Shown: in pieces, positions 5,329-45,708 of the stretch
Numbering within the stretch: position 1 is the stretch's first letter
How the letters are laid out: each line of letters begins with the position of its first letter
Source: Candidatus Troglogloeales bacterium
GTDB lineage: Bacteria > Nitrospirota > Nitrospiria > SBBL01 > SBBT01
Length of the DNA stretch: 51,330 nucleotides
Reading direction: 5' to 3'
Assembly: GCA_005239595.1 (NCBI GenBank)
Contig: SBBT01000043.1
Span: forward strand, 1 to 51,330
Notes under the pieces: generated by a model
Seen by the model: only the letters and a program-made list of their open reading frames with translations
Told to the model about the DNA's origin: nothing
The model's database searches: none
Made by a program: the position numbers and the translations under genes

Positions 5329-7077
5329 CTAGGCTGTCAATACGGTGTCTACCTTCTCTTCTGCGTTATCTTTAGACGATTTCTCAGGGTCGGCGAACAC
5401 CATCTCATTATGGGCCGCGCCGGCCGGAATCATGGGATAGCAGTTTTCTTCCTCATCCACCTGAAAATCGATGAGAACCGGTTTGTCAACCGACAACGCT
5501 TCTCGAATCACGTCAGGCACTTCCTGAATTTCGGTTGCCCGAAGGCCTACTGCTCCAAAAGCCTCGGCCAGTTTCACAAAATCTGGAGAATCCCCCATAT
5601 AGCTGGAAGAATACCGACCGTTATAAAAAAGCTGTTGCCATTGGCGAACCATCCCTAAATACTTATTGTTGAGAATTGCTACCTTGACCGGCAGGCGATA
5701 TTGAACCGCAGTCGCCAATTCTTGAATGTTCATGATGATGCTTCCATCTCCAGAAATGCAGACAACCAACTCATTGGGGTAGGCCTTTTGCACGCCAATT
5801 GCAGCAGGGAAGCCATATCCCATCGTCCCAAGTCCACCTGAATTTATAAACGTCCGCGGGCGGACAAACTTATAAAATTGAGCTGCCCACATCTGATGTT
5901 GTCCTACGTCGGTGGTAACGATTGCATTTCCACGGGTTATCTCATATATTTTCTCAATAACATATTGAGGCTTGATAATTCTTTCTCCCTGCTTGTAAGC
6001 CAACGGATGCTCCATTTTCCATGATTCGATTTGCGTCCACCATTCTTGGCAAGACGCAAAATTTCCGTTGCCGGACGACTTTAGAATTTGATTTAGATCT
6101 TTGAGGATCAATTTCGCATCTCCGACAATGGGGATATGGACAGAGATATTTTTATGAATCGAGGTCGGATCGATGTCAATGTGGATAATCTTCGCGTGCG
6201 GGGCGAAGGCATCCAGTTTTCCCGTAACACGGTCATCAAACCGGGCGCCAATGGCCACAATCAGATCGGCCCTATTCATGCCCATGTTGGCCCAGTACGT
6301 GCCGTGCATGCCCAGCATTCCCAAACAAAGGGGATGGGTGCCTGGAAAAGCACCCAGACCCATTACCGTTAACGTCACGGGAGATTTTGTCATCTCTGCT
6401 AATTCCAGAAGTTCCGGAGAAGCATCCGATGCCAAGACCCCTCCTCCTGCATAAATGATCGGCCGGGTCGCCTTCATGATTTCCTGGGCTGCCTGTTTGA
6501 TCTGCCACTTGTTCCCTTTATAAACGGGAGAATAACTTCGTATATAAACATGCTCGGGATAGGTAAACTCGGTTTTAGCTAGTGCCACATCCTTTGGGAG
6601 ATCAATCAAAACCGGCCCAGGCCTACCAGACGAGGCGATATAAAAGGCTTCCTTTATCACCTGGGCAAGGTCATTAACATCCTTAACTAAAGTATTGTAC
6701 TTGGTGCAGGGACGGGTAATTCCTACCACATCCGCCTCTTGGAAGGCGTCATTGCCAATCAGTTTTGTCGGGACTTGACCGGTGATCACCACCAACGGTG
6801 TCGAATCCATATAGGCGTTCACAATAGCCGTCACCGTGTTTGTTGCACCCGGACCCGATGTAACCAGAACAACACCCGGTTTTCCGGTTGCCCTGGCATA
6901 TCCCTCGGCCATGTGGGTACCCCCTTGTTCATGCCGACAAAAAACAAAGTCGATCTCTTTTTCATCATAGAGTACATCAAAGACAGGAAGATTCACTCCA
7001 CCGGGATAACCAAAAATAACCTTAACCCCTTCCCGTTTAAGAGACTCAATTAGAATCTGTGATCCGGATAACTTAAT
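5329..7077 (-). CDS. ilvB: Acetolactate synthase large subunit; start inferred at a non-canonical ATT
   Basis: ThDP-enzyme motifs are present (GYARATGKPGVVLVTSGPGATN; GGLGTMGYGFPAAIG; SGDGS). The conserved N-terminus ILIESLKREGVKVIFGYPGG lies upstream of the GTG at 6996 used by the ORF track. No ATG, GTG or TTG occurs before the in-frame stop at 7090-7092. The ATT at 7077-7075 sits 6 nt after GGAGGG. Confidence 0.88.
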   Translation of the reverse strand: MKLSGSQILIESLKREGVKVIFGYPGGVNLPVFDVLYDEKEIDFVFCRHEQGGTHMAEGYARATGKPGVVLVTSGPGATNTVTAIVNAYMDSTPLVVITGQVPTKLIGNDAFQEADVVGITRPCTKYNTLVKDVNDLAQVIKEAFYIASSGRPGPVLIDLPKDVALAKTEFTYPEHVYIRSYSPVYKGNKWQIKQAAQEIMKATRPIIYAGGGVLASDASPELLELAEMTKSPVTLTVMGLGAFPGTHPLCLGMLGMHGTYWANMGMNRADLIVAIGARFDDRVTGKLDAFAPHAKIIHIDIDPTSIHKNISVHIPIVGDAKLILKDLNQILKSSGNGNFASCQEWWTQIESWKMEHPLAYKQGERIIKPQYVIEKIYEITRGNAIVTTDVGQHQMWAAQFYKFVRPRTFINSGGLGTMGYGFPAAIGVQKAYPNELVVCISGDGSIIMNIQELATAVQYRLPVKVAILNNKYLGMVRQWQQLFYNGRYSSSYMGDSPDFVKLAEAFGAVGLRATEIQEVPDVIREALSVDKPVLIDFQVDEEENCYPMIPAGAAHNEMVFADPEKSSKDNAEEKVDTVLTA

Positions 7078-36946: not shown

Positions 36947-38689
36947 ATGGAATTCTCACGCCTTGTCCACTACTTCCATCGGATTGAAGAGACAACCAAG
37001 CGGCTATCCATGTTCGATCTCCTGGCAGAGCTTTTTCGCGAGGCCGATGTCGCCGAAACTGACAAAATTATCTATCTGGTGCAGGGCGAACTCCTTCCCC
37101 CTTTTCACGGAATCAACATTGGGATGTCTGAGAAATATCTTCTTCGGGCCATTGCAAAGGCAAGCGGAATAACCTTAGACGAGGCTTCAGACCAATACCG
37201 ACGCATGGGCGATATGGGGGCGCTTGCGGAAAAATATACCTCCGGCGAGGGGAGAGGCCTGTCGGTCTGCGAGATCTACCTTGCAATCGATCGGATTGCG
37301 GCGATGGCGGGAAAAGGGAGTGTCGACCGTAAGATTGACGCGGTCTGCGAACTTCTGGCCTCCGTTTCGGCGATGGAATCCCGGTATCTCATCCGATTTC
37401 TGTCGGGAAGGCTAAGACTCGGCGCGGGCGATGCCACCATCCTGGAGGCATTGGCTCTTGCAAAAGGAGACCGCGCCTATCGGCCGCTGCTGGATCGGGC
37501 TTACAACCTTACCTCCGACCTGGGGTACGTGGCAAAAACCTTTTTCCAATCAGGCGAAGCGGGAATTGGAAATATTTCGGTACAATTGGGATATCCGATT
37601 CGCCCCGCCCTCTGTGAGCGTGCCCAATCGCCGGAAGAGATGATCGAGAGGATGCAACGATGTGTCATTGAAGTTAAATATGACGGCTTCCGCTGTCAGG
37701 TCCATAAGGATCGAAACGGGGTAGCCATCTTTTCAAGAAACCAGGAGCGCACCACGCCGATGTTCCCGGAGATCGTCGAAGAGATCACCCGGCGACTTCC
37801 AAACGAGGAGATCATTTTAGAAGGAGAGGCACTCGCCTACAACGAACAAACGGGCGACCTTCTTCCGTTCCAGACCAGCATCCAGCGTAAACGTAAACAT
37901 GGCGTTGAGGCAATGGCCAGACAATATCCCTTGAAATTCTATCTGTTCGACCTCCTCTATTTCAACGGAAGCGATTATACCAAGTATAGATATACAGACC
38001 GGCGCGAAAAACTGGCGGAAATCCTTCAGAGGCACCCCGTGCAAAATCCCGTCATGATGCTTTCCGAAGCGATCGAAACGGACGACCCTAAAGTCATCCG
38101 GAATTTTTTCGACGCCGCTGTCGAGCGGGGACTCGAGGGAATCATCGCCAAGCGGCCCGATTCCCCATACACTGCCGGTTCGCGCAATTTCAACTGGATT
38201 AAACTGAAGCGAAGCTACAAGGGAGAGCTTGCCGATTCGGTCGACCTTTGCATCATCGGTTATTACGCGGGAAAAGGCCATCGCGCCCAATTCGGAATCG
38301 GGACCATTTTGTGCGCCGCTTATGATCCTGTCTCGGATTCCTTTAAAAGCCTTACCAAAATCGGCACCGGATTTTCAGAAGAGGAGTTGGGGCAGATGAA
38401 GGGACTCCTCGATGAAACCGCGTCTTCCACCTGTCCCTTAAACGTCGATTCAGCGGTTCTGCCCGATGTCTGGATCTATCCCAAACATGTCGTGACGGTA
38501 ATGGCCGATGAAATTACCCGCTCTCCCAACCACACCGCCGGAAAAGACGCCGAGGGAATCGGCTACGCGCTTCGGTTCCCCCGTGTAATCGGCTTCATCC
38601 GCGCCGACAAACGGGCCGAAGACGCCACCACCGTCCCGGAAATCATTCGGATGTTTGAAAGACAAAAGCACGTCAAGACTGCGTCTTAA
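36947..38689 (+). CDS. lig: ATP-dependent DNA ligase, three-domain (DBD-NTase-OB) Lig1/archaeal-like type
   Basis: 580-aa ORF. An N-terminal domain of about 220 aa precedes motif I EVKYDGFRC (Lys243). Also present are LEGEALAY, FYLFDLLY, EGIIAK, WIKLK and motif VI LRFPRVIGFIRADK. Confidence 0.9.
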   Translation: MEFSRLVHYFHRIEETTKRLSMFDLLAELFREADVAETDKIIYLVQGELLPPFHGINIGMSEKYLLRAIAKASGITLDEASDQYRRMGDMGALAEKYTSGEGRGLSVCEIYLAIDRIAAMAGKGSVDRKIDAVCELLASVSAMESRYLIRFLSGRLRLGAGDATILEALALAKGDRAYRPLLDRAYNLTSDLGYVAKTFFQSGEAGIGNISVQLGYPIRPALCERAQSPEEMIERMQRCVIEVKYDGFRCQVHKDRNGVAIFSRNQERTTPMFPEIVEEITRRLPNEEIILEGEALAYNEQTGDLLPFQTSIQRKRKHGVEAMARQYPLKFYLFDLLYFNGSDYTKYRYTDRREKLAEILQRHPVQNPVMMLSEAIETDDPKVIRNFFDAAVERGLEGIIAKRPDSPYTAGSRNFNWIKLKRSYKGELADSVDLCIIGYYAGKGHRAQFGIGTILCAAYDPVSDSFKSLTKIGTGFSEEELGQMKGLLDETASSTCPLNVDSAVLPDVWIYPKHVVTVMADEITRSPNHTAGKDAEGIGYALRFPRVIGFIRADKRAEDATTVPEIIRMFERQKHVKTAS

Positions 38690-38695
38690 CCAACC

Positions 38696-39115
38696 ATGAT
38701 CCAGCAATCCGACGAAATCGTCTTCAAGACATCCGGGCGGGCGCTCTACGACATCACAAAAGAGGTCGCAAGCTGGGTAAAAAAGCAGAACATCCAAACG
38801 GGTCTTCTGACCCTCTATATCCCACACACCTCGGCCTCTCTGCTGATTCAGGAAAACTATGATCCTGAAGTGTTGCGCGACCTGGAGCGATTTTTCAATC
38901 GACTGATCCCACAGGGAGATCCCCTCTTCCGCCACACAACCGAGGGATCGGACGACATGCCAGCCCATGTCCGTTCCGCCCTAACCGCCACCACCCTTTC
39001 GATTCCGGTGAGACGCGGCCAGGTTTCTCTCGGAACCTGGCAGGGGATATTCATCTACGAGCACCGCACCGCAGGACACGTCAGAAAGATACTGTTCCAT
39101 CTGATGGGTGAGTGA
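38696..39115 (+). CDS. yjbQ: YjbQ/UPF0047-family protein (secondary thiamine-phosphate synthase)
   Basis: 139-aa ORF. LLTLYIPHTSASLLIQENYDPEV...GSDDMPAHVRSAL...GTWQGIFIYEHR is the characteristic UPF0047 pattern. Confidence 0.85.
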   Translation: MIQQSDEIVFKTSGRALYDITKEVASWVKKQNIQTGLLTLYIPHTSASLLIQENYDPEVLRDLERFFNRLIPQGDPLFRHTTEGSDDMPAHVRSALTATTLSIPVRRGQVSLGTWQGIFIYEHRTAGHVRKILFHLMGE

Positions 39116-39196
39116 AACAACCCAAAAAAATGTTTTTGTGGCTTCCGGGTTTAAATGGATCTTTGTTTGAGTTAGGATGGTCGCCACAGAAGGAAG

Positions 39197-39900
39197 GTGG
39201 CAGCCATGGAAGACCGGGTAGGTATGCGTAGGACCGAAATAGGCGGATTAAGAGCGGTAGCAGTGTTATCGATTGCAATTACTCATATCGACAAGACACT
39301 TCTGCCGAATGGTTACCTTGGCGTCGATATCTTTTATGTGATATCTGGATTTGTTATCACTCAATCCCTGCTCTCGCGTCAGTACAGTTCCTTTAGGCAT
39401 TATATCCTCGGTTTTTACCAGAGACGAATAAAGCGGTTAGTCCTGCCCTTTTCCTTTGCATTGCAATGACAACCCTATTTGTATGGCTGGTTGTTTCACC
39501 AAAATCACCCCTCTCCTGGGTTTCCCCCCGGACTGGAGTGGCAGCCCTTTTTGGCCTTTCCAACCTTTATCTCGGAAGACAGGCTGTCGATTACTTTGGC
39601 CCTTCAGAAAAATTAAATCTTTTTACCCATACATAGTCTTTGGGCGTTGGAAAACAATTTTATTTGTTGTTTCCTCTTCTCCGCTGGTTTAGTGGTCTGC
39701 CGCAAAAAAGAACAGGGGCCTTCAGAAGGTTTTCTTTAATCATTAGTGTAACCGGAATCGCTTCGCTTATATCCTATATCTGGTTGAGCAAGACAAATCC
39801 AGTCATGGCATTCATCATGCCGACGCGTTTTTGGAAACTTGCACCTAGGTGCCGGTGCGTACATGGCACTGATGCGGTCATAACAAACAACGTATACATG
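39197..39900 (+). pseudogene. Decayed acyltransferase-3 (OafA/YrhL-like) gene
   Basis: The N-terminal part is intact (GLRAVAVLSIAITH...GYLGVDIFYVISGFVIT...FYQRRIKR). A frameshift near 39435 follows. An in-frame TAG at 39634-39636 replaces the Trp of the conserved HTWSLGVE-QFYLLFP motif (reads HT*SLGVGKQFYLLFP). A further frame break follows, and the 3' part runs into the convergent gene. Confidence 0.7.
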
Positions 39901-39967
39901 CCACAAGTCAGTATCGTATATCATACTGCTCTGTATTTGTTAAAACGCCATCTGGAAAGTGGATCGC

Positions 39968-42394
39968 TCATTGTAAGAGAGGCAGCAGCGCCTCCGGAGA
40001 TGCTGGTTCGCCCAATAATCGGCCGGAAACCACATCACACTGGACGGCCCGCAAGAACTCCAGCTGCGCTTCTGTCTCAACCCCTTCGGCAAGGACCTTT
40101 ATCTTGAGGCTATGGGCCAATCCGATCATGGCTGAAATCTCTCTACTCGAACAGTCGTCCGTCATCTTCCTCACAGAAGAAGGTGTCAACTTTAAGATAT
40201 CGATCGGGAAAGGTTTTATAAAATACACCGGAGGAGAGAGGGCCCCAAAATCATCGACGGCCAGTTGCACCTCCAACCGTTTCAGTTCTTGCAGGGTCGC
40301 GACCGCCACATCAGGATGCTGCATGATTCCGCAGGGAAGTTCTAGCACCAAACTGCGTTGAGGGATACCCGTTTCTTTTAATACCCTGAAGATAATCTCG
40401 GCGATATTTTTTTGTTTGAACTGATGCCCCGAGAGATTCACCATCACATAGAGCGGGGCCTGCAGTCCGATGGAACGCCACGATTGACCTTGGGCACATG
40501 CGACACGGAGCGCCCATTCTCCAATCGACGCCATCAATCCCGTTTCGTCTGCCACGCGGACAAATTCGTCGGAAAGGGGCAAACCGAGATTCGGACGCTG
40601 CCAACATAAACAGGCCTTCACGCCAACGACTTGACCTGTCGCAAGATCGATCTGCGGCCGATAGCGCATTGCAAACCCCTCCCTTTCTAACGCATGCCGC
40701 AGCGCATTTTCCATCTCGAGTCGGCAAGAAGCGGCCACGTTCATTTCCGCCGTGTAGAACTGATAGTTATTTCTCCCGCGTTCCTTGGCAAGATACATGG
40801 CCGCATCCGCATTTTTGATGAGGGTTTCGACGTTGTCTCCATCCGTCGGATACAGCGCGATTCCGACGCTGGCTGTTATAAAACGCTCACGGCCGGAAAG
40901 AGAAAATGGACGGGCGATGGCATCAAGGATCTTCTGCGCCACCCTGGCGGTGCTTCCGATTTGTGTCATGTTGGCGAGCATGACTGTAAATTCATCGCCT
41001 CCCAGACGGGAAACGGTGTTACTCTTGCGAACGCAACCCAATAGCCTTTCGGAAACCGATTTAAGCAACTTATCTCCGATAGCATGTCCCAGGGAATCAT
41101 TGATAATCTTAAATCGGTCCAGATCTATAAACAAAAGGGCCACCTGCCTCTTATTCCGTTGGGCAAAGACCATGGCTTGGCTGAGGCGTTCATAAAGCAA
41201 GGTGCGATTGGGCAGACCGGTCAGGACATCATGCAAGGCCAGGTAATGAAGGCGCTCCTCCGCCCTCTTTCGTTCGGTAATATCTCGAAAACTCGACACC
41301 CTCCCCACCGGCCTTCCATCGAGCATCTGTGGTTGTGAAAATCGCTCAAACACCCGTCCATCTTTAAACTCAATTAAATCAAAACCTTCTGACAACGGCT
41401 GAGCATAGAGCTTCCTCATCTTCGATAGAAACTCCTCCGGCCGTTTGAGCTGATCCAGAATATATGCCACCCATTTTTGGTGCTCCCTTATCTTGAGAAC
41501 TTCCGGTGGAATCCGCCACATTTCGACAAACCGGTTATTGACACTGGTTATTTTTCCGTGAAAATCAACGACAAGAATTCCATCTGCCGTCGATTCAATC
41601 GTTGATAGGAGGAGCGATGCCGTACGTTTTCTCTCCTCCTCGCCACGCTGACGTTCGGTGATGTCCCTTAAAATAACGGTATGAAATAGGTCCCCTCCTA
41701 CTTCCACTTCAGAAACGGACACCTCGATAGGGAATTCCCTCCCATCGGCCCGGATTCCTTTCGTTTCAATCGGTTCTGATGCTGGGCCCTCCTTTTCCTC
41801 CGGGGTCGCAAAAAACCATTTCGACCAAAAGGGGATAAAACGATCGAGCGGTTGGCGGATCGCTTCATCTGCCGGACAACAAAACATTTTTTCAGCCGCC
41901 GTATTAAAAATTGAGACGCGCCCGCTTGCGTCAATAGTGATAATCGCATCCATGGCGGAGGCGATGATGGAAAGCAGCCGTGCTTCAGACTCCGCCAACG
42001 CCTGTTTCGTGCGCACCTGCGTCAGGACACAGTCGACCGCTTCAGGGAGATAATCAAGATACTCCAGGGATTTGGTGACAAAATCACTGACACCGGCACG
42101 CAGCGCATTTATGACCGTTGTCTCATCACCCTTTCCCGTCACCATGATCACCGGAATATCGCAGCCGGTCGCTTTCAATTCTTTATAAAACTCCAGGCCT
42201 GTCACGCCATCGGGCAGACAGTAATCCAAGACAATCAAGTCGATCCCGCCATGCAGGATCCGCTCTAACGCCTCTTTAGGTTCAGCAATCGTCACCACAC
42301 CATATCCGGCCCGTTTAAGACGAATCTGCTCCAGACGGGCGACACCGGGATCGTCCTCAATCACCAGGATCGTCTTCGGCTTTGCATCAGCCAT
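39968..42394 (-). CDS. Response regulator: REC-PAS-PAS-GGDEF-EAL (EAL degenerate)
   Basis: 808-aa ORF. The REC domain has Asp57 (LIVLDYCLPD), Thr (VIMVTG) and Lys (DFVTKS). Two PAS-like segments follow. GGDEF is intact (RLGGDEFTV). The EAL-type domain has KAC in place of EAL and other substitutions. Confidence 0.9.
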   Translation of the reverse strand: MADAKPKTILVIEDDPGVARLEQIRLKRAGYGVVTIAEPKEALERILHGGIDLIVLDYCLPDGVTGLEFYKELKATGCDIPVIMVTGKGDETTVINALRAGVSDFVTKSLEYLDYLPEAVDCVLTQVRTKQALAESEARLLSIIASAMDAIITIDASGRVSIFNTAAEKMFCCPADEAIRQPLDRFIPFWSKWFFATPEEKEGPASEPIETKGIRADGREFPIEVSVSEVEVGGDLFHTVILRDITERQRGEEERKRTASLLLSTIESTADGILVVDFHGKITSVNNRFVEMWRIPPEVLKIREHQKWVAYILDQLKRPEEFLSKMRKLYAQPLSEGFDLIEFKDGRVFERFSQPQMLDGRPVGRVSSFRDITERKRAEERLHYLALHDVLTGLPNRTLLYERLSQAMVFAQRNKRQVALLFIDLDRFKIINDSLGHAIGDKLLKSVSERLLGCVRKSNTVSRLGGDEFTVMLANMTQIGSTARVAQKILDAIARPFSLSGRERFITASVGIALYPTDGDNVETLIKNADAAMYLAKERGRNNYQFYTAEMNVAASCRLEMENALRHALEREGFAMRYRPQIDLATGQVVGVKACLCWQRPNLGLPLSDEFVRVADETGLMASIGEWALRVACAQGQSWRSIGLQAPLYVMVNLSGHQFKQKNIAEIIFRVLKETGIPQRSLVLELPCGIMQHPDVAVATLQELKRLEVQLAVDDFGALSPPVYFIKPFPIDILKLTPSSVRKMTDDCSSREISAMIGLAHSLKIKVLAEGVETEAQLEFLRAVQCDVVSGRLLGEPASPEALLPLLQ

Positions 42395-42614
42395 TACATC
42401 TATCCATTCCTGTAAAGGTTTACTTAAATGGCAAGAGAAGGCTCACAACTCCTCCTTTTCCGATTGGTCAGAACGGTTATCACTTGCAGAAAGAGCCAAA
42501 AACGCCTGATCCCTCGGAGAAATCATCATAGCCCACTTCCGCTGAATGAGAATATCCTTCGTCATCTTTGGCCATCAGGATTGTCACCGATTGTGTCAGC
42601 ATCGCTCGTTAACG

Positions 42615-44816
42615 TCAGGACAGGGGTTGCGCAGGCAATCTCACGAAGAAAGTACTTCCAGCCCCTTCGGTCGATTCCACCCAAATATCCCCTCCATGCC
42701 GATTCACAATACGGCGAACAATCGCAAGCCCAATTCCGTTGCCTTTAGCAATCTCGGGGTGAAACCTCTGAAAGAGATGGAACAGCTTGGGTCTTGCCTT
42801 TTCAGGAATACCGACGCCATTGTCCTTCACATAATACGTATGGAAGCCGTTTTCCCCTGCCTCCGCGCCGGCGGCAGCCTGTAGATGGCCAACCTCGATA
42901 AAAACCGGCCGCTTCGGATCGACATAGGCCATCGCATTTCCGATGAGGTTTGCAAAAACCTGTTCAATCGCGGTGGGGTCTCCCAGGGCGAACGGCAAAT
43001 CGTTCAGCGCCACCTTCGCCCCCCGTTCGGAGATCGTCATCTGCATCGAGGCCAAGATGCGGCCGATCATGCCGTTGAGATCAAGCGGCTCGGATCGATA
43101 TTCCACCCTGCCTTCTCTGGATAAACGTAACAGCCCATCAATAATGTTACTTACCCGTCCCACAGCTGTCTGAATAAAACGGACCATTCCTGTCATCTCA
43201 TCAACGAGGGCCAGACCGCGCGTTTTTTCAGCCGCGGGCAGGTTGCTCTCCGTAAAGATTCCCCGGATATCCTGGCTGACATAGCTTAACTCCTTGCTAA
43301 AACCAACCAGGTTCAAAAGGGGGGAACGAAGATCGTGCGAAACGCCGTAAAAAAACATCTCATTTTCATCGTTCTTGCTTAATAATTCACGATTGGTCTG
43401 GGCCAGCAACAAATTGGCGGCATTCAGCTGGGTCGTCCGATCAGATGCCTCTCTCGTTTTCTCCTGGAGGCTATCCATCAGTTTATTAAATACTCTGGCC
43501 ACAGCCCCCGCTTCGGTCTCCGGTTCAACATAAACCCTCTTCGAGAGGTCATGGGTTTGATGGATACCATTAATATCGTCCGCCAACTTGTGCCAGAAGG
43601 TATGGACACCATGCTCCGAAACGTTCAATCCGCTCTCTTCGCTCTCGGGGCTTACCCGCAGCGGGTAGAAATACCGGTCCATCAGTTTCATGATGAGCCA
43701 TACGATAGCGAAGGTGTAAATAAAACAGACCGTCATCCCAAGCATCTGTACCAGGATCTGCCGGACGCGGCCTCCATCCGTCAAGAACACCTCTTTTGCA
43801 AACAGGGCGACAGAAAGCACGCCCCACATCCCGCAACCCAAGTGCACCGGCACAACCCCGATAGCATCATCGACGCGGAATCGGCTCAGCAGCGCCCCGA
43901 CGCGATTAACGACCACCCCCGCTATAACACCAATTATCAATGCCGACACCGGAGAGACAAAAGGACAAGACGCCGAAATTGCAACCAGCCCGCCCAAAAG
44001 ACCGTTTAGAATCGCCCCCAGATCAAGTTTTTTTTTAGTCTTTTCCGCCCAGGTCAAGGCAAGGGATGAAAGTGCCCCTCCGCAGGCAGCCAGGTTCGTG
44101 TTGATGAGAATAATCCCTATCCTGTTTGTTAAGGAAAGGTTCACGCCGCCCGTCATTCCAAACCATCCGATCCAGATGAGCCCCCCTCCAAAAACGCTTA
44201 ACGGAAGATTACTGCCCCAAATTTTATTGACCGTTCCGTCCAGATTATATCTTCCCATCCTCGGTCCAAGAATGGTGAGGCAGGCAAGTGTGGTGGCGCC
44301 TCCCACCATATGAATTACGCTGGAACCGGCGAAATCTTTATATCCCATCGCCGCAAGCCACCCCTGCGTCAGCCCGGCATCCCCTCCCCACACCCAATGG
44401 CCAAAAACGGGATAAACGAGAGTGGCCGTGACAAGACTCACACAGAGACACCCGCCGAAACGCATCCTTTCTCCCACGCCGCCCGAAATAACCGAAATCG
44501 CCACACCGCAAAGCGCTCCATGGAAAAAGAGGACTCCATAGACCCATCCCTCCTGGTCTACGAAAAAGTATTTACCGAGCAACCAACCATCCGTTCCAAA
44601 CCATCCGGTTTGGCTTGTTCCAAACATTACGGAAAAACCGACAGAAAAGAAGGCAATCGTGGCCACCATGAAATTGACCATGTTTTTCATTGCGACATTG
44701 ATGGTGTTCTTCTGGCGAACGGCCCCGACTTCTAAACAAAGGAAACCCGACTGCATCATCAAGACCAGCAACCCACAGACCAACAACCAGATCATATCCA
44801 TCTGCGTATGAGACAT
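42615..44816 (-). CDS. Ammonium transporter (Amt) domain fused to a histidine kinase
   Basis: 733-aa single ORF. The Amt signatures are MQSGFLCLEVGAVRQKN, DFAGSSVIHMVGG and VPVHLGCGMWG. They are followed by HisKA (SHDLRSPL) and HATPase_c (NLIGNAMAY, DNGVGIP, GNGIGLAIV). Confidence 0.88.
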   Translation of the reverse strand: MSHTQMDMIWLLVCGLLVLMMQSGFLCLEVGAVRQKNTINVAMKNMVNFMVATIAFFSVGFSVMFGTSQTGWFGTDGWLLGKYFFVDQEGWVYGVLFFHGALCGVAISVISGGVGERMRFGGCLCVSLVTATLVYPVFGHWVWGGDAGLTQGWLAAMGYKDFAGSSVIHMVGGATTLACLTILGPRMGRYNLDGTVNKIWGSNLPLSVFGGGLIWIGWFGMTGGVNLSLTNRIGIILINTNLAACGGALSSLALTWAEKTKKKLDLGAILNGLLGGLVAISASCPFVSPVSALIIGVIAGVVVNRVGALLSRFRVDDAIGVVPVHLGCGMWGVLSVALFAKEVFLTDGGRVRQILVQMLGMTVCFIYTFAIVWLIMKLMDRYFYPLRVSPESEESGLNVSEHGVHTFWHKLADDINGIHQTHDLSKRVYVEPETEAGAVARVFNKLMDSLQEKTREASDRTTQLNAANLLLAQTNRELLSKNDENEMFFYGVSHDLRSPLLNLVGFSKELSYVSQDIRGIFTESNLPAAEKTRGLALVDEMTGMVRFIQTAVGRVSNIIDGLLRLSREGRVEYRSEPLDLNGMIGRILASMQMTISERGAKVALNDLPFALGDPTAIEQVFANLIGNAMAYVDPKRPVFIEVGHLQAAAGAEAGENGFHTYYVKDNGVGIPEKARPKLFHLFQRFHPEIAKGNGIGLAIVRRIVNRHGGDIWVESTEGAGSTFFVRLPAQPLS

Positions 44817-44874: not shown

Positions 44875-45708
44875 CTACTCTTTTCGCCACTCCGGACCTA
44901 AGTCCGTAATAATGTAGCTCCCCGATGTTTTATCTTTTTCGAGCACCAGAAACTTGCGTCTCTCGGCCTCTTCCAAGAGGAGGCTAAATGATCGAAAACC
45001 GTAATAGGATTCGTTAAATCCAGGTTTTCGTCTGCGTAGGGTCTGTTTGACCATCGATCCCCAGACCTTCTCCTTCTCTCCCCGTTCATTAAATATTGCC
45101 TCGGAGGTCTCTAACACCATCTGAACCGCCTCCTGTTTTTTGGCCTCCCGTTTTTCATCATCCATTCCGCCGATGACCTTGGCATTCGATGTCCTGGGGC
45201 GGCCTCCCCTCGCTTTTCCCTGATCCGTGCTCTCTCGAACGAGATCGTCATAAAAAACAAATTCATCGCAATTGGCAATCAGGAGGTCGGAGCTTGAGTT
45301 CTTTACGCCAACGACAATCACCATTTTATTGTTTTCACGCAGTTTGCTGACGAGGGGCGAAAAATCAGAATCACCGCTGATCACCACAAAGGTATTGATG
45401 TGCGACTTGGTATAGCAGAGATCCAGGGCATCGACCACCATCCGTATATCGGATGAGTTTTTCCCGGACTGGCGGATATGCGGGATTTCGATCAATTCAA
45501 AGGCCGCTTCGTGCATTCCCTCTTTGAACTCCTTATATCGATCCCAATCGCAATACGCCTTCTTGGAAACAATATTCCCTTTGAGCAAGAGCCGCTCAAG
45601 CACCTTCTTGATATCAAATTTCGCGTAACGCGCATCGCGCACGCCGATGGCGATATTTTCAAGATCGCAAAAAACCGCTATATTAGATGTGTTCTCTCCT
45701 GCCCCCAT
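44875..45708 (-). CDS. NYN-domain (LabA-like) protein with C-terminal OST-HTH/LOTUS domain
   Basis: 277-aa ORF. The NYN pattern is IAVFCDLENI...SGKNSSDIRMVVDALD...VVISGDSDFSPLVSKLREN. The C-terminal segment GSMVKQTLRRRKPGFNESYYGFRSFSLLLEEA resembles OST-HTH. Confidence 0.78.
   Translation of the reverse strand: MGAGENTSNIAVFCDLENIAIGVRDARYAKFDIKKVLERLLLKGNIVSKKAYCDWDRYKEFKEGMHEAAFELIEIPHIRQSGKNSSDIRMVVDALDLCYTKSHINTFVVISGDSDFSPLVSKLRENNKMVIVVGVKNSSSDLLIANCDEFVFYDDLVRESTDQGKARGGRPRTSNAKVIGGMDDEKREAKKQEAVQMVLETSEAIFNERGEKEKVWGSMVKQTLRRRKPGFNESYYGFRSFSLLLEEAERRKFLVLEKDKTSGSYIITDLGPEWRKE

Follow-up and report, generated by a model that had tools for sequence, protein, structure and literature searches.

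A candidate ammonium to c-di-GMP pathway in Nitrospirota: an Amt-histidine kinase beside a receiver-cyclase regulator with a degenerate EAL domain

We examined two adjacent genes in a 51,330-nucleotide stretch of DNA from Candidatus Troglogloeales bacterium (contig SBBT01000043.1, assembly GCA_005239595.1; the whole stretch is hereafter called the window). One encodes a histidine kinase with an ammonium transporter-like (Amt) domain and the other a response regulator with domains for the synthesis and breakdown of cyclic di-GMP (c-di-GMP). An earlier note, made from the sequence alone, had proposed that this pair reads external ammonium out as c-di-GMP turnover. Both open reading frames (ORFs), their coordinates and all motifs quoted in that note are present in the translations, and the domain architectures it described, Amt-histidine kinase and REC-PAS-PAS-GGDEF-EAL with a phospho-acceptor at Asp57, were borne out by Pfam search. 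Its reading of the output and of the novelty of the link needs revision, as set out below.

Genes of the locus

The kinase is encoded by ORF 42615..44816 (minus strand, 733 aa) and the regulator, with the architecture REC-PAS-PAS-GGDEF-EAL, by ORF 39968..42394 (minus strand, 808 aa). The regulator does lie 220 bp downstream on the same strand, as had been noted, but the gap is not an empty spacer, since it holds a receiver pseudogene. The features are as follows.

43605..44792, minus strand: Amt-like sensor domain, kinase residues 9-404 (PF00909, TIGR00836, PDB matches, AlphaFold2 model)
43377..43604, minus strand: helical linker, kinase residues 405-480 (alignment with the receptor Sd-Amt1, AlphaFold2 model, substitution rates, invariant columns)
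42615..43376, minus strand: histidine kinase transmitter, kinase residues 481-733 and stop codon (HATPase_c, weak HisKA, PDB matches, invariant columns)
42443..42602, minus strand: pseudogene of a single-domain receiver, CheY/Rcp-like (orthologue in a sister assembly, blastn, pairwise alignment, tblastn)
42062..42370, minus strand: REC, regulator residues 9-111 (PF00072, E = 1.6e-21)
41654..41977, minus strand: PAS1, regulator residues 140-247 (Pfam PAS/PAS_9)
41255..41596, minus strand: PAS2, of the PAS_7 type, regulator residues 267-380 (Pfam, domain-wise blastp)
40766..41239, minus strand: GGDEF, regulator residues 386-543 (PF00990, E = 1.2e-50)
40004..40708, minus strand: degenerate EAL, regulator residues 563-797 (PF00563, E = 2.5e-53)

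The kinase is a genuine Amt fusion

Pfam Ammonium_transp (PF00909) covers residues 9-404 of the kinase (E = 4.9e-99), the TIGR00836 (amt) score of 352.4 bits lies above the curated cut-off of 343.3, and HATPase_c covers residues 612-730 (E = 1e-22). The HisKA match at residues 486-567 is weak (21.3 bits, below the cut-off of 26.9), probably because of an insertion of ~20 aa in the dimerization and histidine phosphotransfer (DHp) domain; the H-box residue His494 is present. The transmitter boxes, H494 (SHDLRSPL), N627, G1 (D665-G669), the F-box (F679/F682) and G2 (G692-G694), are all invariant among the closest relatives in an alignment of the subfamily, and the PDB matches of the transmitter are the histidine kinase 8f71 and bacteriophytochrome kinases.

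A frameshift or an assembly error that joins two genes can be ruled out as the origin of the fusion, because relatives carry the same single ORF. This layout is common to the kinase's 13 closest relatives. In a protein search in which 7,653 of the 8,000 candidates scored were relatives at E ≤ 1e-20, Amt and HATPase_c were also both present in 119 of the 119 other protein clusters among the matches listed. The single polypeptide reported in the earlier note is thus real. Its observation that no PII gene accompanies the Amt domain likewise held: tblastn with an approximate Escherichia coli GlnK query sequence found none in the window. Neither a second Amt domain nor a second kinase was found elsewhere in the window by tblastn.

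The Amt domain is of the receptor type, with an altered second site

The two characterized ammonium receptors are the closest matches of the kinase among solved structures. The best is Sd-Amt1 of Shewanella denitrificans (8QJ3; E = 7e-98, 332 bits), an Amt-HAMP-GGDEF ammonium receptor (PDB 8QJ3/8QJ4/8QPF; Pfluger et al. 2024, PMC11152129), and the alignment to it crosses the linker to residue 464. The second is Ks-Amt5 of Candidatus Kuenenia stuttgartiensis (E = 5e-80), an Amt-histidine kinase (PDB 6EU6; Pfluger et al. 2018, PMC5764959). The transporters Af-Amt1 and AmtB are much weaker matches (~1e-37 to 1e-39).

The residues of the domain point the same way. Receptors have been distinguished from transporters by a Glu in place of the channel-wall Tyr, by the ligands of two binding sites (N1 and N2), by a Lys switch and by an Asn that constricts the exit (PMC11152129). 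The window Amt domain keeps the twin-His pair H169/H325, D161 and W143, and also the residues typical of the sensor (AmR) class, Q22, F25, E29, K44, N45, F49, S111 and N271. Here E29 aligns with the channel-wall Tyr27 of Af-Amt1, and N271 aligns with N269 of Sd-Amt1 and Ser251 of Af-Amt1. Together with the twin-His, Q22, F25, E29, K44, N45, F49 and the equivalent of N269 reproduce the pocket of Sd-Amt1. The published AmR signature for the N1 and N2 sites, Q-X6-E-X15-N-X2-D-[FT]-X54-60-T-X2-[ST] (PMC11152129), is matched with correct spacing at five of its seven positions (Q22, E29, N45, F49 and S111); at the other two, D is N48 and T is S108.

Relative to Sd-Amt1, the window protein carries D48 to N48, T104 to S108, Y119 to C123, S225 to V225 and, in the Phe gate, F98/F221 to L102/M221. 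Several of these changes (D48 to Asn, Y119 to Cys, F221 to Met, together with N222 to Thr) are shared with a relative of 86% identity. At T104 the window protein has Ser and this relative Ala, the vestibule Ser is Val and Ala, respectively, and the second gate Phe has become Leu in the window protein alone. Within the subfamily, the joint set of N2 and Phe-gate substitutions is confined to these two proteins. D48, T104, Y119, F98, F221, N222 and S225 are kept in 11 of the 12 other members, the exception being P0011, in which D48 and T104 are both Ala and several signature positions are off. The D, F and T positions of the signature are matched in 11 of these 12 members as well, and the final [ST] is Ala in P0003-P0007 and P0009.

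Taken together, these features would place the window kinase in the AmR functional class, of the Sd-Amt1/Ks-Amt5 type, with the caveat of an altered N2 site and Phe gate; the earlier note had likewise compared it with the sensor Ks-Amt5. Ammonium is most likely the ligand, since neither the N1 site nor the pore core is damaged and both evolve under purifying selection, and to this extent the ammonium signal proposed earlier is upheld. With the N2 carboxylate, its Y119 partner and both Phe-gate residues replaced, however, ammonium binding is less certain, and that part of the proposal is less secure.

The same substitutions raise the alternative that the Amt domain of the window lineage no longer reports ammonium by a two-site mechanism, and responds instead to one ammonium ion bound at N1 alone with a changed affinity, to another small cation or amine, or independently of any ligand. 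The position of the changes speaks for it: D48 is the anionic ligand of N2 and Y119 its partner in the ON state of Sd-Amt1 (PMC11152129), the changes at these sites (in the window protein D48N, Y119C, L102/M221 and S225V) occur together in no subfamily member but this protein and its relative of 86% identity, and the strict signature is missed at two of seven positions. Yet the N1 ligands E29, N45, Ser108 (for Thr) and S111 are kept, along with the K44 switch, N271, the twin-His and D161; the D to N and T to S changes are conservative in size and polarity; and the ratio of nonsynonymous to synonymous substitution rates (dN/dS) of the Amt domain is 0.18, which signifies purifying selection. We therefore consider this alternative quite unlikely.

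A conserved linker joins sensor and transmitter

The AlphaFold2 model of the kinase (mean pLDDT 69.7, moderate confidence) has 11 long membrane helices and, in the linker region, a helix at residues 399-421, a loop, and a helix at residues 435-523 that runs into the DHp domain. The linker has the lowest dN/dS in the kinase (0.066) and many invariant columns in the subfamily alignment. No match to Pfam HAMP was found in the kinase. Nonetheless, the alignment with Sd-Amt1 and the model suggest a HAMP-like linker, as predicted for Sd-Amt1, with the same helix-loop-helix form.

A metagenome scan for further kinases of the window lineage returned none, only relatives of the kinase core with other sensors. 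In two soil-metagenome kinases (L092:196-2562 and L093:1-1317), the linker and transmitter share 56-57% identity with the window kinase over its residues 443-732, and a REC gene directly follows the kinase gene in both. No Amt domain was detected in the ~495 upstream residues of the L092 kinase, and the L093 gene is cut by the contig end. The same transmitter module apparently is joined to another sensor in these soil kinases.

The regulator combines an intact GGDEF motif with a degenerate EAL domain

In the REC domain of the regulator, D14, D15, the phospho-acceptor D57, T86 and K108 are all intact. So are the GGDEF motif (G465-F469), the metal-binding Asp and the FIDLDRFKxIND motif of the cyclase domain. 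The inhibitory I-site, a usual but not obligatory feature of active cyclases, is not: its RxxD motif reads RKSN (residues 456-459) both here and in the orthologue, and is kept in nine of the nine other relatives compared.

The EAL domain, read like the GGDEF domain from an alignment to MorA (4rnh) and relatives, has lost much of its catalytic set. The EAL motif is KAC (K593), the following Arg is C597, ELTE has become ELP-C (the second Glu being C688), loop 6 has changed from TGYSS to ALSPP, KxD is KLT (T737) and QG is SG (S790). Kept are N653, E685, D714, D715, K735 and E770. In EAL enzymes such as RocR and TBD1265, removing just the Glu of the EAL motif is enough to abolish hydrolysis. The "EAL-type domain" of the earlier note is therefore correct as a PF00563 match, but key catalytic residues are gone.

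With catalytic residues missing from the EAL domain and the I-site gone, synthesis alone is the likelier output, and the c-di-GMP turnover proposed earlier is too broad. The regulator probably delivers phosphorylation-controlled c-di-GMP synthesis without product inhibition, acting as a cyclase only.

Selection has not abandoned the EAL domain. Its dN/dS of 0.22 is the highest of the segments measured and is still that of purifying selection; the domain is still constrained and therefore probably has a structural or regulatory role. LapD and FimX offer a precedent, as their EAL domains are non-catalytic and bind c-di-GMP as receptors; their GGDEF domains are degenerate too, and in LapD a Lys replaces the EAL Glu. 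The window regulator resembles them in retaining a non-catalytic EAL domain under selection and differs from them in its intact GGDEF domain. Its match to the NCBIfam LapD model (E = 2.6e-31) falls far below the cut-off, and c-di-GMP binding by its EAL domain is doubtful because the Arg that contacts c-di-GMP is a Cys.

The PAS domains bear on the kinship of the regulator. Beyond the orthologue, the nearest matches of PAS1 are the PAS domains of the regulators at two loci of the kinase subfamily described below (L102, 42.5%, and L099, 40%; ranks 2 and 3 of 124), a likeness of small margin that is weak evidence for kinship. PAS2 is common to a family of ~705-aa orphan REC-PAS_7-GGDEF-EAL proteins. 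We also considered that the regulator could be a "split" descendant of one-polypeptide Amt-PAS-PAS-GGDEF-EAL fusions; this was ruled out, as the output parts are only 25-31% identical, which is generic similarity.

A single-domain receiver gene has been lost between the two genes

The 220-bp gap is explained by a sister assembly, GCA_964373895.1 (locus L081), which aligns collinearly with the window (~87% nucleotide identity). Between its kinase and GGDEF regulator genes lies an intact gene for a 151-aa receiver (L081:8935-9390) with the motifs DD, LLDINMP, TTTDD and AKP. The gap in the window aligns to both ends of this gene and keeps the ATG and the first 16 codons, followed by a 5-bp deletion, a ~290-bp deletion and, in the 3' piece, a 1-bp deletion. 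The ~290-bp deletion takes out the regions of the phospho-acceptor Asp, the Thr and the Lys, and the tblastn matches to the remnant fall in different frames.

Three separate lesions amid intact flanking genes argue for real pseudogenization and not misassembly. An error-prone assembly is unlikely to be the cause, since nine genes around the locus are uninterrupted and ilvB, which seems truncated at its 5' end, is accounted for by a non-canonical start codon. With the single-domain receiver gene destroyed, the regulator is the only receiver left in the locus.

No terminator-like hairpin was found between the kinase and regulator genes of the window. In L081, a GC-rich perfect hairpin (CTCTGCGGGC-TTT-GCCCGCAGAG) without a T-run lies between the single-domain receiver and GGDEF regulator genes (L081:9396-9486). 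It is missing from the window, where the distance between kinase and regulator is shorter.

Pseudogenes at the locus could also mean that the whole module is decaying, with the kinase and regulator genes on their way to becoming pseudogenes and without current function. Two pseudogenes flank the regulator gene (the receiver remnant at 42443-42602 and an acyltransferase-3 fragment at 39114-39967), and no measured segment has a higher dN/dS than the EAL domain. However, the ORFs of 733 and 808 codons are intact, and the kinase, REC and GGDEF domains retain their catalytic motifs. Moreover, whole-gene dN/dS is ~0.16 for both genes, within the range of 0.07-0.17 for neighbouring housekeeping genes (at dS ~0.5), and both genes are therefore functional by selection. 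Decay is thus very improbable.

Gene neighbourhoods point to a candidate regulator partner, alongside a more widespread one

Ten distinct loci of the close subfamily, with kinases 46-86% identical, were compared; their gene contexts were taken from exact-protein look-ups. A scan of a genome collection with the subfamily alignment gave, among the matches listed, relatives of at most 44% identity only. The neighbours of the kinase gene at the ten loci are as follows.

Window: single-domain REC as a pseudogene remnant; REC-PAS-GGDEF-EAL downstream, same strand
L081: single-domain REC; REC-PAS-PAS-GGDEF-EAL downstream, same strand, after the REC
L102: single-domain REC (start only, contig end); REC-PAS-GGDEF-EAL upstream, same strand, 42-bp gap
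L099: 240-aa REC-PAS protein in the REC slot; REC-PAS-GGDEF-EAL upstream, divergent
L084, L085 and L086: single-domain REC; no REC-PAS-GGDEF-EAL adjacent
L087 and L101: single-domain REC and a second REC; no REC-PAS-GGDEF-EAL adjacent
L100: single-domain REC; no REC-PAS-GGDEF-EAL adjacent

REC-PAS-GGDEF-EAL genes thus flank the kinase subfamily in four of the ten loci, in three different arrangements. In all three lineages of kinase-adjacent regulators the EAL domain is degenerate, at different catalytic residues, and the GGDEF domain is intact. The full canonical EAL set is present in seven of the seven other relatives compared, and the three of these whose context was examined are orphans with no Amt-kinase nearby. 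At L099, the REC-PAS protein (L099:5074-5796) shares 68% identity with the N-terminal part of the regulator encoded divergently from the kinase (L099:512-2686); it is apparently a partial duplicate of that regulator, placed in the usual slot of the single-domain receiver.

Several findings weigh against the regulator as the kinase's partner. A single-domain REC gene lies directly downstream of the kinase gene in eight of the ten loci, often overlapping its stop codon, and the receivers of L081 and L084-L086 are orthologous (53-89% identity). Judged by position, the single-domain receiver is the ancestral partner of the kinase. No GGDEF gene is found near the kinase in six of the ten loci, and the pairing of an Amt-kinase with a REC-GGDEF protein occurs in none of the ~80 more distant Amt-fusion loci listed. 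The regulator's own REC, PAS2, GGDEF and EAL domains find their nearest relatives in a family of orphan regulators, and none of the three of these whose surroundings were examined lies near an Amt-kinase. Its REC domain is 31-37% identical to the single-domain receivers, and in a comparison of REC alpha-1 the orphan regulators match these receivers as well as the window regulator does. A conserved REC-GGDEF gene beside the Amt-kinase, which the earlier note had offered as a check on its idea, is accordingly seen in four of the ten subfamily loci, but the widely conserved neighbour is the single-domain receiver.

One could conclude from this that the single-domain receiver is the kinase's only true partner, that the regulator is an orphan-type protein that merely lies nearby and is served by another kinase, and that the window kinase either has no local partner or uses a distant receiver. 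The prevalence of the single-domain receiver, the low identity between the two kinds of REC domain and the fact that the regulator's closest relatives (51-55% identity, among them a Ca. Manganitrophus protein) are orphans without an Amt-kinase nearby all fit this explanation. It accounts poorly, however, for a kinase-regulator adjacency that recurs in three independent arrangements, for a REC domain of the regulator's family in the slot directly downstream of the kinase at L099, and for EAL degeneration in three of three kinase-adjacent lineages versus none of the seven relatives compared. By our own rough estimate, if 1% of genes encode such regulators, ~3% of loci would have one flanking the kinase, and three of nine independent loci would arise by chance with p ~2e-3. 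Chance adjacency is hard to accept given three independent arrangements, and we regard this explanation as rather unlikely. The link between kinase and regulator is plausible and gains support from the recurrent neighbourhood.

A proposed pathway from the Amt domain to c-di-GMP

The architectures, residue states, pseudogene, synteny, recurrent neighbourhood and purifying selection described above are observed. As an interpretation, we propose a branched two-component system that has been reduced here to the Amt-kinase and the cyclase regulator, a candidate wiring from ammonium to c-di-GMP whose chances we put at about even. The subfamily occurs in relatives of Candidatus Manganitrophaceae (Nitrospirota), where the kinase would work in a branched module with the single-domain receiver encoded directly downstream; several lineages would also employ a REC-PAS-GGDEF-EAL regulator whose EAL catalytic residues have been lost. 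In the window, the pore-like Amt module would bind its ligand and occupancy would change autophosphorylation of the kinase, the HAMP-like helical linker passing the change on to the HisKA/HATPase transmitter. The phosphoryl group would then be transferred to Asp57 of the regulator and switch its diguanylate cyclase, which would be subject to no product inhibition and accompanied by no phosphodiesterase activity. From these sequence features we infer that the regulator receives the phosphoryl group, that its output is synthesis alone, that ammonium is the ligand, and in which direction the response runs.

A further-reaching form of this proposal is tentative, and on balance doubtful. It holds that, in these Nitrospirota related to manganese oxidizers, a retuned sensor, with N2 neutralized and the Phe gate opened, and the loss of the single-domain branch together hard-wire an ammonium-type or new-ligand signal to feedback-free c-di-GMP synthesis, in a DivK/PleD-like two-receiver pathway in which the phosphodiesterase has repeatedly been given up.

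In Caulobacter crescentus, the kinases DivJ and PleC serve both the single-domain receiver DivK and the receiver-diguanylate cyclase PleD, whose genes are neighbours. The gene order at L081 (kinase, single-domain REC, REC-...-GGDEF) resembles this branched design. PleD is REC-REC-GGDEF; it lacks an EAL domain, and its I-site is intact. The system described here also differs from DivK/PleD in that there is no sequence orthology, the sensor input is another one, and the single-domain receiver of the window is a pseudogene.

Genomic setting

The window has the gene content of a housekeeping chromosome, with ilv/leu, radA, tatC, hom-thrC-lysC and purQLF genes and two tRNAs. Rfam and tRNA scans of the window returned these two tRNAs only, with no feature within the kinase-regulator locus. 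For its RadA, matches of 72-75% identity carry the labels Candidatus Manganitrophus/Manganitrophaceae and Nitrospiria.

Upstream of the kinase gene by 58 bp, on the same strand, lies a gene for an NYN-domain protein with a weak OST-HTH/LOTUS match (44875-45708, minus strand), which is kept in L081; in other subfamily loci this slot is taken by a His_Phos_1 gene. On the other side, the window has an insertion of ~850 bp relative to L081 (39114-39967), which separates yjbQ from the regulator gene's 3' end. This insertion holds a frameshifted and truncated Acyl_transf_3 (PF01757) pseudogene and has a GC content of 44.5%, versus ~51% around it.

Two further genes stood out. The frame of ilvB (acetolactate synthase large subunit; window 5329-7070, minus strand) extends ~25 codons before the first ATG, GTG or TTG, and a GGAGGG ribosome-binding site followed by ATT upstream suggests a non-canonical ATT start and not a truncation. 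A 580-aa ATP-dependent DNA ligase of the archaeal/eukaryotic type (DNA_ligase_A_N/M/C) is encoded at window 36947-38689 (plus strand) and is also found in L081.

Comparison with other Amt sensors and significance

The earlier note regarded a link between ammonium and c-di-GMP as undescribed. This does not stand, since the cyclase activity of Sd-Amt1 rises with ammonium and needs the twin-His (PMC11152129), and Amt-PAS-GGDEF-EAL fusions are common. The proposed final output of the window pair, c-di-GMP synthesis, is that of Sd-Amt1. The difference lies in the wiring: the cyclase of Sd-Amt1 is fused to the sensor, whereas the window sensor is joined to a histidine kinase instead and the cyclase resides in a response regulator of its own, which unlike the Sd-Amt1 cyclase carries two PAS domains and a dead EAL domain.

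Ks-Amt5 is like the window kinase in joining an Amt sensor to a HisKA/HATPase transmitter and in having an N1/N2-type pocket. It was described without a HAMP-type transducer, whereas the window kinase has a linker like that of Sd-Amt1. It also comes from another phylum (Planctomycetota versus Nitrospirota) and keeps the N2 Asp and the Phe gate, both of which are altered in the window kinase. The response regulator of Ks-Amt5 is called "yet to be identified" in its own paper (PMC5764959), in agreement with the earlier note, and in the literature found we saw no response regulator described for any Amt-histidine kinase.

One-polypeptide proteins make the same connection without a phosphorelay. 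Among the 80 genome loci listed in the search with the kinase-subfamily alignment, at least 13 encode Amt-PAS-(PAS)-GGDEF-EAL fusions, in hosts that include Stutzerimonas stutzeri, Azoarcus, Vreelandella, Thioalkalivibrio and Desulfovibrionaceae. These combine an Amt sensor with a PAS-GGDEF-EAL output, as here, but in a single chain. Some genomes carry Amt-fusion genes in tandem, such as two Amt-PAS-PAS-GGDEF-EAL genes in a metagenome-assembled genome (MAG) of Desulfovibrionaceae and two Amt-PAS-HK-REC-REC genes (HK, histidine kinase) in a Chloroflexota MAG. Pelagibacteraceae genomes have paired Amt genes of ~720-745 aa with C-terminal domains that gave no match to the models used. The loci of these tandem and paired genes are L017:5839-13744, L059:9148-15793, L057, L058 and L080.

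What is new here is thus a two-component variant of the wiring and a candidate partner for an Amt-histidine kinase; the sensing principle is already known, and the advance is an incremental one within that framework. Amt-fused sensors are abundant, and only two have been studied. A recurrent module of an Amt-kinase, a single-domain receiver and a receiver-cyclase with a dead EAL domain provides a concrete and testable output pathway. Natural variants, namely the lineage with D48N/Y119C and an altered Phe gate and the genome without the single-domain receiver, provide material for tests of the two-site activation model. If true, the proposed pathway would extend the published link between ammonium and c-di-GMP from a one-protein sensor to a phosphorelay; in its further-reaching form, it would be the first case in which the output pathway of an Amt-histidine kinase is defined.

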